A stretch of DNA of 8,163 nucleotides from a virus (taxonomy: Duplodnaviria > Heunggongvirae > Uroviricota > Caudoviricetes), in the IMG/VR virus record IMGVR_UViG_2740892526_000007, one strand, 5' to 3'. Positions 3,001-6,000 of this stretch are shown here, in pieces. Position numbers: made by a program. Each line of letters begins with the position of its first letter. Positions within the stretch are counted from its first letter, which is position 1.

Positions 3001-6000
3001 GCAGGTTGCTTTCGGTGAAGTCAGTGAGTCGTCTGCTGACAACAAGGCAGACAAAACGGATATCCGGAAAACGGCGGAAGAGAAAGTGAAGACCGCTGAA
3101 CAGGAGCAGGCAGTACCTGCTTCCCCGTCAGATTTAGGCACCACGGCTTCCGTCGGAACCGGTGATAATTTTGAACGGTTACTTGGCGCTTCTCATTCAG
3201 AGGCAGAGGCGATTATGCGCGGTATGACGAATGCTGAAATAGACGCGCTTCTGGAGAAGCTCGGGTAACTTACTGAAGGAGAACTGAAGTAATGACGACT
3301 GTAACATCAGCCCAGGCGAATAAGCTGTATCAGGTGGCGCTTTTTACCGCTGCCAACCGCAACCGCTCGATGGTAAATATCCTCACTGAACAGCAGGAAG
3401 CGCCAAAAGCGGTTTCGCCGGACAAGAAAAGCACGAAGCAGACCAGCGCGGGTGCGCCGGTTGTCCGTATCACAGACCTTAACAAACAGGCCGGTGATGA
3501 AGTGACCTTCAGCATCATGCACAAACTCTCAAAACGTCCGACGATGGGAGATGAGCGTGTTGAAGGTCGTGGTGAGGATCTCAGCCATGCTGACTTCTCC
3601 CTGAAAATCAATCAGGGACGTCACCTGGTGGATGCAGGCGGACGTATGAGTCAGCAGCGCACGAAGTTTAACCTGGCATCCTCAGCCAGAACGCTTCTGG
3701 GGACGTACTTTAATGACCTGCAGGACCAGTGTGCGATAGTGCATCTTGCTGGAGCTCGTGGTGATTTTGTTGCTGACGACACTATTCTGCCGACAGCGGA
3801 GCACCCTGAATTCAAAAAAATCATGATCAACGATGTACTGCCTCCGACACATGACCGTCACTTTTTTGGCGGTGATGCGACAAGCTTTGAGCAGATTGAA
3901 GCGGCAGATATTTTTTCTATTGGCCTGGTGGACAATCTCTCCCTGTTCATTGACGAAATGGCGCATCCGTTACAGCCGGTTCGTCTGTCCGGTGATGAAC
4001 TTCACGGAGAAGATCCATATTACGTCCTGTACGTCACGCCGCGTCAGTGGAATGACTGGTACACCTCGACGTCCGGTAAGGACTGGAACCAGATGATGGT
4101 TCGTGCCGTGAACCGTGCAAAAGGTTTTAATCATCCGCTGTTCAAAGGTGAATGTGCGATGTGGCGCAATATCCTGGTTCGTAAGTATGCGGGTATGCCG
4201 ATCCGTTTCTATCAGGGGTCAAAGGTTCTGGTATCAGAGAATAACCTGACGGCAACCACGAAAGAGGTCGCTGCTGCAACCAATATTGACCGCGCCATGT
4301 TACTGGGGGCTCAGGCGCTGGCAAATGCTTACGGTCAGAAGGCGGGCGGTCACTTCAACATGGTTGAGAAGAAAACGGATATGGATAACCGTACTGAGAT
4401 AGCAATCAGCTGGATCAACGGTCTGAAAAAAATCCGTTTCCCCGAGAAGAGCGGCAAGATGCAGGATCACGGCGTGATTGCCGTTGATACAGCAGTGAAG
4501 CTCTGATTTTTTCCTTTCCCTATGCCGGGTTTTCGCCCGGCTTTTTCAGGAGTCATTAATTATGGCAAAGACTATCCTTGCCCCGTCACTGAGTGAACGG
4601 GTCTATACGGGTACGCACGGTAATGAGTCGGTGGCAGAAGGCGTATTTACGGTGAATGCTGCGGAAGCGGACAGTGTTATTCATCTTCTCTCACTGCCAG
4701 TGGGCATCCGTATCAACTCACTCCAACTGGTTTCAACGGGTGGTCTGGGTACTGCAACCGTCAGCATTAAGTCCGGTGAGCATGCTCTCATCGATAACAG
4801 CGAAGCTGTTTCTGCAAAATTTGCCAGATATGTGCCAGTGGAGCCGTACACCACACAGCGTGACGGGGAGCTGGTTACTGTCACCATTAAGACTGCCGCT
4901 GCAACCGGCACCCTGAATGTTCTGCTGCGTTATACCGTGGTGGGATACTGATTAAAACCTTCCGGCCCGCGTCATGCGGGCTTTTTATCCGGGGAATTAT
5001 ATGAGTGAGAAAATTGCCGTTGTCTATATCGGCCCAAAACCCGTGAAAAAGGACACCATTACCGGAAGTCGCACGCTGTTCCCACGTCTTGAGCCGGTGC
5101 ATGTTGACAGCGCGATGGCCTGGCAACTGCTGGGGTTTCCGGATGTCTGGGTTCGTCATGAAGAGCTTGATGATGTTCTGAAAAAGCAACAACAGAATGA
5201 GCAGTTGCGGCAGGCACAGCAGGCGCAGGAAAGAGTGCTTGCTGCGCTGGCAGAAGCGGAGAACAGTTTTGTTGTTTCTGTTAACGGGCAGGAGGTGGAT
5301 TTAAGTAAGCTCACCTCAGCACGGCTGGCGACGCTGTGTGAGGCAGAAGAGCTGGATATTCACAAAGACCCGAAAGAAACGGCTGAGGCATTCCGTATCC
5401 GGGTGCGTGAGGCATTTCGCCGTCGTGTTGCGGAGACTGAACAGCATGGCGGAACTGAGTGATTTTTTACCGTATGTCCGTCGTCATATCAGCGGTCCAC
5501 TGAACATTATGATGACGGATGCTCTGTCAATGGCTGCCGTGGCATTCAGCCGCCAGTCGTTGGTGTGCCGTCGGGAGGTTACTGTTGTACCAGTAGCAGG
5601 AAAAGAAATCGTGCTTCCGTATGACAAAGATGATGAGGAGTGCGTTCATATCATCCGTATCTCTGACGATAATCATGAGCTTTTTGTCGGTCGGGATGTG
5701 GATATCAGCTCCGGACGCTCCCTGCGATTTGCCTGTTCTCCCGGTGAGGTGAGCGTGCTTTATGCCGTCGCTCCGAAAGCCGGACGCAGCCAGATACCGG
5801 ATGAACTCCTCACATGGCCTGAAGAAGTGGCTGCGGGGGCACTTGAGCGGTTGTTCATGCAGACTGGTGTTTCATGGTCAGATCCGTTACGCGCACAGTA
5901 TTTTTCTGTGCAGTTTTCTGAGGGGATCCGTCGGGCATATCGTCATACACTGGCGACAAGCCCGTACTCTTCATACCGCAACCCTGTACGCAGGCAGAGG

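Follow-up and report, generated by a model that had tools for sequence, protein, structure and literature searches.

A predicted capsid cement gene between terminator-like hairpins in the head module of Stx2 phages

The question raised by this locus is whether a small gene directly behind the major capsid gene of a tailed phage, bracketed by two hairpins that resemble intrinsic terminators, is an inserted and separately regulated cassette or a constant part of the phage head. The gene lies in an 8,163-nucleotide (nt) stretch of Caudoviricetes DNA, IMGVR_UViG_2740892526_000007 (the whole stretch is hereafter called the window), and encodes a protein of 129 amino acids (aa). The 2.2-kb stretch around the gene is 100% identical to the Shiga toxin 2 (Stx2) phages 933W and VT2-Sakai (Sp5) and to many other Stx-converting phages, and current annotations of the gene read 'hypothetical' or 'virion structural protein'. 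A first-pass annotation of the window had left two readings side by side, a decoration protein and a moron-like insertion. The analyses described here favour a fixed cement protein gene whose flanking hairpins act on protein dosage or on RNA 3' ends, an explanation to which, taken as a whole, we assign a probability of roughly 0.6; its parts differ in strength and are weighed separately below. All genes of the region are on the + strand, and the two at the centre of the question are separated by a gap of 55 nt:

3292–4506, + strand: major capsid gene (L0116/ECs1223/ORF62), HK97 fold, Pfam Phage_capsid_3 with an expectation value (E) of 1.5e-88, phrog_334
4562–4951, + strand: 129-aa gene (L0117/ECs1224/ORF63), product predicted to be a jelly-roll capsid cement (decoration) protein

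Fold and homology of the 129-aa protein

A single-sequence search of the PDB with the 129-aa protein returned insignificant matches only, and neither the protein nor its family matched Pfam; in PHROGs it belongs to phrog_486, labelled 'virion structural protein'. Profile searching of 1.84 billion cluster representatives recovered 76 clusters, mostly of 125–140-aa proteins, and the family alignment revealed a conserved N-terminus (APSLSxxxYxGxxGNxS), a conserved C-terminus and a variable middle. The AlphaFold2 model computed from the family alignment, with a predicted local distance difference test score of 85.7, is all beta, an eight-stranded beta sandwich with a floppy N-terminal arm of low confidence (residues ~1–20). 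Fold matches in BFVD were uncharacterised proteins only, and Foldseek superimposed the predicted beta sandwich (jelly-roll, Ig-like) on solved cement proteins. The decoration-protein fold that the first-pass annotation had suggested looking for by structure prediction was thus found, in a confident model.

Profile comparisons were then used to relate the family to proteins of known structure. The family profile (A2, 46 sequences) matched the cement protein of cyanophage Pam1 among PDB sequences with E 1.8e-5, and hhalign aligned it with an alignment of proteins like gp1 of Ralstonia phage GP4 (A3) over 125 columns, with a probability of 94% and E 1.3e-7; A3 itself matched GP4 gp1 (8h89_J) with E 5e-71. 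Because of these profile matches to Pam1 and GP4 gp1, the resemblance to cement proteins is taken as homology and not as a mere sharing of fold. GP4 also provides the nearest solved relative of the capsid protein (8h89_A, E 1.2e-38), and in Pseudomonas phage KPP25 the gene at this position encodes chain W of PDB entries 26de and 44ny, both of which hold a homologous capsid protein as well.

Among the head genes, the cement gene diverges fastest, with 68–83% nucleotide identity to E. coli relatives (loci L004 and L016–L018) versus 83–88% for the capsid gene. The changes cluster in the central part of the protein, and the N- and C-termini hardly vary, a pattern that fits a surface-exposed protein anchored by its ends. 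Fold, homology and gene adjacency to the capsid gene all point to membership of the 129-aa protein in the GP4/Pam1/KHP-type cement family, and L0117/ORF63 very probably encodes the capsid cement (decoration) protein of Stx phages 933W and Sp5. Another role for the jelly roll, as a carbohydrate-binding or tail accessory protein or as an assembly factor absent from the mature capsid, appears unlikely to us.

Solved cement proteins of the same type are those of Pam1 (7eel chain H) and gp16 of H. pylori KHP30 and KHP40 (7dn2, 7dou), from phages otherwise not closely related to the Stx phage. GP4 gp1 (8h89 chain J) is ~19% identical to the Stx protein and longer (157 aa versus 129 aa), and its termini pack on the trimer body, whereas the Stx protein has the predicted floppy N-terminal arm; in addition, the Stx gene is not needed under laboratory conditions, the comparison with GP4 being one of sequence and structure. 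By homology with GP4 gp1 and the Pam1 cement protein, the Stx protein would sit as trimers on the outer capsid at three-fold and quasi-three-fold positions, would be approximately equimolar with the major capsid protein and would reinforce the shell. In GP4, 540 cement subunits accompany 540 capsid subunits, and the cement trimers lie on the quasi-three-fold axes (PMC9698820).

Functional analogues are known in gpD of lambda, Dec of phage L and Soc of T4, small proteins that form trimers or bridges on the outside of an HK97-fold shell, at its three-fold positions. Like ORF63, both Dec and Soc can be dispensed with; full-length lambda genomes require gpD. None of the three was among the listed structural matches of the Stx protein, and their folds (tulip, OB and beta-tadpole; PMC9698820) are unlike that of the Stx protein.

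The genetics of the head module were described by Mondal 2016 (PMC5155283), where the capsid protein ORF62 was found to be essential and was located by antibody as coating the head. The same study built an in-frame ORF63 deletion (primers in its supplement), and ORF63 is absent both from the nine genes needed for plaques and lysogeny and from the two with reduced infectivity; deletion of ORF64, the next gene downstream, gave a mutant with reduced infectivity (PMC5155283). We count the viable ORF63 deletion as consistent with a cement role.

Position of the gene in related phages

Morons, reportedly so described by Juhala et al. in 2000, are autonomous accessory cassettes in a phage late operon. 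As a moron-like inserted cassette, the 129-aa gene would be an accessory gene with its own regulation, isolated by terminators, and the two flanking terminator-like hairpins, its own strong ribosome-binding site and its dispensability for plaque formation and lysogeny are in keeping with this. Such a cassette would be expected to come and go between the same flanks, the comparison that the first-pass annotation had proposed, but the gene proved to be nearly constant. Among close relatives, 189 records carry the 129-aa protein, versus ~192 whose capsid protein is at least 90% identical.

To look further afield, 13 more distant phages were chosen through the capsid protein (tblastn, annotated phages), at identities from 94% down to 26%. 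They comprised E. coli phage PhiR12_3, three Vibrio phages, Achromobacter CF418P1, an F116-like Pseudomonas phage, Burkholderia DC1, Ralstonia YL1, Agrobacterium Atu_ph08, Klebsiella SJM3, Pseudomonas Itty13, Paracoccus KLEP18-1 and Pseudomonas KPP25. The cement homologue itself served to retrieve five extra metagenome or genome loci, whose hosts are E. coli-like and Edwardsiella-type. All 18 relatives inspected have, directly 3' of the capsid gene, a gene for a protein of 109–159 aa, which is counted as recognisably homologous in 15 of them. The A2 profile detects the small gene in 10 of the 13 phages; the small genes of YL1 and Atu_ph08 are linked to it through the GP4-like alignment A3, and that of the Paracoccus phage was taken on position alone. 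Four of the extra loci (L016–L019) gave direct matches, 72–41% identical, and the protein of the fifth (P0040 of L020) is only 36% identical.

The DNA around the gene was likewise unlike that of an added cassette. A consensus scan, which is a weak test, found no sigma-70-like promoter in the 55-nt gap before the gene (4507–4561), and promoter-like matches in the window were at chance level (4 versus 4.9 ± 1.7 expected). G+C content is flat, at 0.50–0.53 across 4400–5000 and 0.50–0.54 in the flanks. A downstream terminator of its own, as a moron should have, is present in the form of the second hairpin, but this is shared across the lineage and so not specific to morons; patchy presence between the same flanks, a promoter of its own and a distinct base composition were not found. 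Moreover, both fold and homology place the product with virion cement proteins, and the variable slots for extra genes are found elsewhere, between the portal, scaffold-position and capsid genes. Insertion as a moron-like cassette is therefore highly improbable, and we are almost certain that the gene is not a moron. In our reading, it is ancestral to this short-tailed phage lineage and fixed there as a partner of the capsid gene. Hence the decoration-protein half of the first-pass proposal stands and the moron-like half falls; universal presence combined with a demonstrated essential role had been named there as the outcome that would speak against a separate insertion, and it is the presence that was found, the gene being dispensable in the laboratory.

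Terminator-like hairpins and their surroundings

Both T-tailed hairpins of the first-pass annotation are present, as is the ribosome-binding site of the 129-aa gene, and a further hairpin was found upstream:

2121–2150, + strand: third, stronger hairpin, after the portal gene; 9-bp stem and loop of 6, then TTTTGTTT
4524–4546, + strand: hairpin 1, an intrinsic-terminator-like stem-loop followed by T5, after the capsid gene
4548–4552, + strand: Shine-Dalgarno motif AGGAG, read from the sequence, 9 nt before the ATG (4562) of the 129-aa gene
4964–4987, + strand: hairpin 2, an intrinsic-terminator-like stem-loop followed by a T run, after the 129-aa gene

Hairpin 1 (GCCGGGU-UUUC-GCCCGGC) starts 18 nt past the capsid stop codon; its stem (4524–4530/4535–4541) has six G-C pairs and one G-U pair, with the loop UUUC and TTTTT at 4542–4546. 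Hairpin 2 starts 13 nt past the stop codon of the 129-aa gene and has a stem of 7 pairs (4964–4970/4976–4982), the loop GUCAU and a T run to 4986. Overall, the two have stems of 7–8 pairs with 6 G-C, loops of 4–5 nt and T5, and they lie on the sense strand just past stop codons; the reverse strand of the hairpins has no T run. The portal-gene hairpin has a minimum free energy of -25 kcal/mol in context (z -4.1).

A strict terminator rule (at least 7 pairs with G-U allowed, at least 5 G-C pairs, a loop of 3–8 and a T-rich tail), applied to the whole window, matched exactly three sites on the + strand (2121–2144, 4524–4541 and 4964–4982) and none on the - strand. In 300 dinucleotide-preserving shuffles, the mean was 0.07 strict matches per strand, and no shuffle reached three. 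All three matches fall within 284 nt (3.5% of the window) of head-module intergenic DNA, and every sizeable gap of the head module holds such a hairpin. A looser terminator scan found 13 sites, against 7.6 ± 2.7 expected, its top three being the same sites. Raw folding energy, ranked over 34-nt windows, failed to pick out the short terminators of the window, and a finder limited to perfect Watson-Crick pairs misses hairpins 1 and 2, each of which has G-U pairs. In Rfam, the one match, to isrJ on the portal terminator, stayed below threshold (E 0.98). By their canonical anatomy, the three hairpins are genuine elements of the intrinsic-terminator type on the sense strand. The bracketing of the 129-aa gene by two of them was therefore correctly recognised in the first pass, but the gene is not uniquely isolated, given the third and stronger hairpin after the portal gene. 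Two other functions were considered for the hairpins: an RNase III site was rejected, as stems of 7–8 bp are too short for one, and masking of the ribosome-binding site in an outer helix, with CCUU paired to AGGA, was predicted in some relatives only.

To survey the hairpins in relatives, both gaps were folded in each of 14 loci, the window included. A strong G+C-rich stem-loop follows the capsid gene in nine of the 14 loci and the cement gene in 12. T-tailed hairpins numbered 15 in the 1,495 nt of the two gaps and 13 in the remaining 111 kb, a contrast that overstates the enrichment, as the DNA elsewhere is mostly coding and hairpins are disfavoured there. The stem sequences are unrelated between the E. 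coli, Edwardsiella, Vibrio and other lineages; the Edwardsiella-type hairpins, for example, read GGCAGGC-UUCG-GCCUGCC and GGCCCC-GCG-GGGCC, each followed by a long T run, and closer E. coli relatives display small changes that preserve the stem. The portal-gene hairpin is kept in E. coli relatives, and the Edwardsiella relative has a different hairpin with a T run in the same gap. RNAalifold and covariation analysis of 6–7 sequences gave a weak signal of one compensatory pair per hairpin, the Edwardsiella hairpins not being alignable with those of E. coli. In SJM3, Itty13, KPP25 and Vibrio D56, hairpin 1 is absent, the cement gene follows closely on the capsid gene and a hairpin comes after the pair; the recurring unit would therefore be the capsid and cement genes closed by a hairpin. 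As far as these comparisons go, the flanking hairpins are a lineage-wide feature and not insertion scars.

If the hairpins were full terminators, the head module would be divided into separate transcription units, each block being restarted from a late promoter of its own. Three terminator-like sites do partition the module, and the conserved 157-nt gap after the portal terminator could hold a type of promoter that the scan missed. However, no promoter-like sites were found in 2104–2260, 4507–4561 or 4952–5000, the total being at chance level as noted above; only ~15 nt separate hairpins 1 and 2 from the next ribosome-binding site; and the accepted Stx model is a single late transcript from PR' (PMC7547250). 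We consider separate units very unlikely.

The remaining genes of the window are the following:

ending at 2103, + strand: portal gene, Pfam P22_portal
2261–3268, + strand: 335-aa gene (L0115/ORF61) at the scaffold position
5001–5462, + strand: 153-aa gene (L0118/ECs1225/ORF64), phrog_482, the first gene after the capsid-cement pair
5449–6009, + strand: 186-aa gene (ORF65), phrog_437, 'virion structural protein'
6009–6659, + strand: 216-aa gene (ORF66/L0120), Pfam SU10_adaptor, E 4.6e-31
~6656–8163, + strand: collagen-repeat tail fibre gene, after ORF66

The start of ORF64 bears on hairpin 2. An alternative start at 4974, inside the loop of hairpin 2, would give a 162-aa protein and appears in the open reading frame (ORF) list and in the 933W and phi345 annotations. 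The start at ATG 5001 fits the Sp5 annotation and all homologues (151–154 aa), and the Mondal supplement gives 153 aa (PMC5155283). The 162-aa version is probably wrong, and with the start at 5001, hairpin 2 is fully intergenic.

The non-coding gap at 2104–2260 (157 nt), which holds the portal-gene hairpin, is 90–95% identical to E. coli relatives and thus at least as conserved as its flanks (84–92% for the scaffold-position gene and 83–88% for the capsid gene). Past the terminator hairpin, it contains a second predicted stem-loop and the motifs GGGCAGCGATAAGCC and CGGATCTGTCCGATAAACAG, both of which are kept in the Edwardsiella relative, which is otherwise ~45% identical; one record annotates a 41-aa ORF within it. 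The gap may be a regulatory leader for the scaffold-position gene. Autoregulation of the scaffold is established in P22.

Several observations concern the neighbouring genes themselves. The stretch from the portal gene past the scaffold-position gene to the capsid gene is the variable cargo slot of the module. In Vibrio phage 1F273_PE002 it is occupied by genes with the annotations Thoeris anti-defence and endolysin (L005 297–2067); in DC1 (L009 3006–3200) and SJM3 (L012 3070–3279), CsrA-like RNA-binding regulators stand immediately before the capsid gene; and KLEP18-1 has an HNH endonuclease on the opposite strand (L014 2579–3157). On one metagenome contig (L019 1200–2439), two ORFs (317 and 111 aa) are called in place of a single capsid gene, which reflects a frameshift or an assembly error. 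Mondal 2016 proposed ORF65 as the scaffolding protein and listed ORF61 as 'head formation, role unknown' (PMC5155283); by position, between the portal and capsid genes, ORF61 would be the likelier scaffold, and a gene of similar size is found upstream of the capsid gene in most relatives inspected. ORF66, of the SU10_adaptor (portal adaptor) family, was individually deleted by Mondal 2016 and is not among the nine essential genes, which is surprising for an adaptor homologue. In the tail fibre gene there are long collagen-like Gly-X-Y repeats, and these also yield long spurious ORFs on the opposite strand. Collagen-like repeats in the tail fibre are reportedly a known feature of O157 prophages.

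Possible roles of the hairpins

Late genes of Stx phages are read from PR' by a Q-modified, terminator-resistant RNA polymerase (PMC7547250), and the genes downstream of the hairpins include ORF65, 67, 70, 71, 79 and 80, which are essential for head or tail formation (PMC5155283). Given this resistant polymerase, the essential genes downstream and the lack of a convincing promoter, the hairpins cannot be absolute stops in lytic growth. They may instead be leaky terminators, 3'-end stem-loops that shield the upstream mRNA from exonucleases, or both, leaving more message for the capsid and cement proteins (hundreds of copies) than for the adaptor and tail genes (about a dozen). As the shell proteins are needed in high copy and the proteins that follow in low copy, the role that we infer for the hairpins is to enrich shell-protein mRNA; a role in dosage or at RNA 3' ends seems to us about as probable as its opposite.

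Similar arrangements are known elsewhere. The T-phi terminator of T7 lies directly after capsid gene 10. In the N4-like phage LUZ7, graded read-through has been mapped, and leaky terminators balance phage expression in both LUZ7 and T7 (PMC9163698). The likeness consists in an intrinsic terminator after a high-copy capsid gene that is read through to low-copy structural genes. The polymerases differ, however: phage RNA polymerases or unmodified host polymerase in T7 and LUZ7, and in the Stx operon a Q-modified host polymerase that is expected to resist intrinsic terminators, so that the same anatomy may act there mainly through RNA stability. More tentatively, and with less than even odds, the capsid-hairpin-cement-hairpin layout could be a lineage-wide expression device; in the Q-antiterminated Stx operon, the hairpins would then not terminate transcription but stabilise RNA 3' ends, possibly after endonucleolytic processing, and so fix how much shell protein is made relative to connector and tail proteins; terminator anatomy could then persist inside a terminator-resistant operon, owing to the stabilising role. 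A remoter version has the stable 3' fragments acting as Hfq-binding small RNAs; an Hfq cross-linking supplement does not mention ECs1222–1225 and so lends this version no support.

The main rival to a dosage or 3'-end role is that the hairpins are lysogeny insulators, that is, efficient terminators that halt unmodified polymerase in the prophage, where they would silence capsid genes whose products are abundant and possibly harmful, are ignored by the Q-modified polymerase and have no part in dosage. The canonical intrinsic-terminator anatomy of all three hairpins on the sense strand and the Q-antitermination of the Stx late operon (PMC7547250) both agree with this, and dosage alone hardly explains a hairpin between equimolar proteins. 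A role specific to lysogeny or to Q would, on the other hand, not explain why hairpins are conserved at the same positions in other genera (KPP25, Itty13, SJM3 and GP4-like phages). These phages are not known to be lambdoid, and some are reportedly virulent. Insulation of the prophage is accordingly a serious contender, though one that we rate as doubtful.

Several points weigh against a cement protein gene with dosage or 3'-end hairpins, besides the overstated enrichment of hairpins in the gaps. Hairpin 1 stands between the presumably equimolar capsid and cement genes, where the dosage model does not obviously need one, and five of the 14 loci are without it; this hairpin is poorly explained by the dosage and lysogeny-insulator models alike. 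The Q-modified polymerase could ignore the hairpins wholly, and their selective value may lie elsewhere, for example in silencing stray transcription in the lysogen. The virion location and copy number of the cement protein, and the mechanism of the hairpins, are points that we infer. Our literature search found no Stx-phage cryo-electron microscopy, cement-protein paper, 933W or Sp5 virion proteomics or mention of 'L0117', nor any paper naming this Stx-phage gene as a cement protein.

The key virulence factor of enterohaemorrhagic E. coli is carried by Stx phages, whose virion has so far been described only poorly. In the one systematic genetic study, ORF63 remained a non-essential hypothetical protein. 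The assignment proposed here does not overturn current understanding and is of modest significance, and it would supply a missing entry in the inventory of Stx virion parts. It predicts that particles with an ORF63 deletion have lower stability to heat, chelators or storage, which bears on the environmental persistence of Stx phages, and if ORF63 is the cement protein, it would be an abundant, dispensable and surface-exposed protein usable for tagging or display. Term-seq and differential RNA-seq (dRNA-seq) data exist for Sakai, the dRNA-seq set being GEO GSE143631 (PMC7547250). The conserved hairpins, for their part, offer a simple hypothesis for how the dosage of structural proteins may be set within an antiterminated operon, which can be tested with the public Term-seq data.

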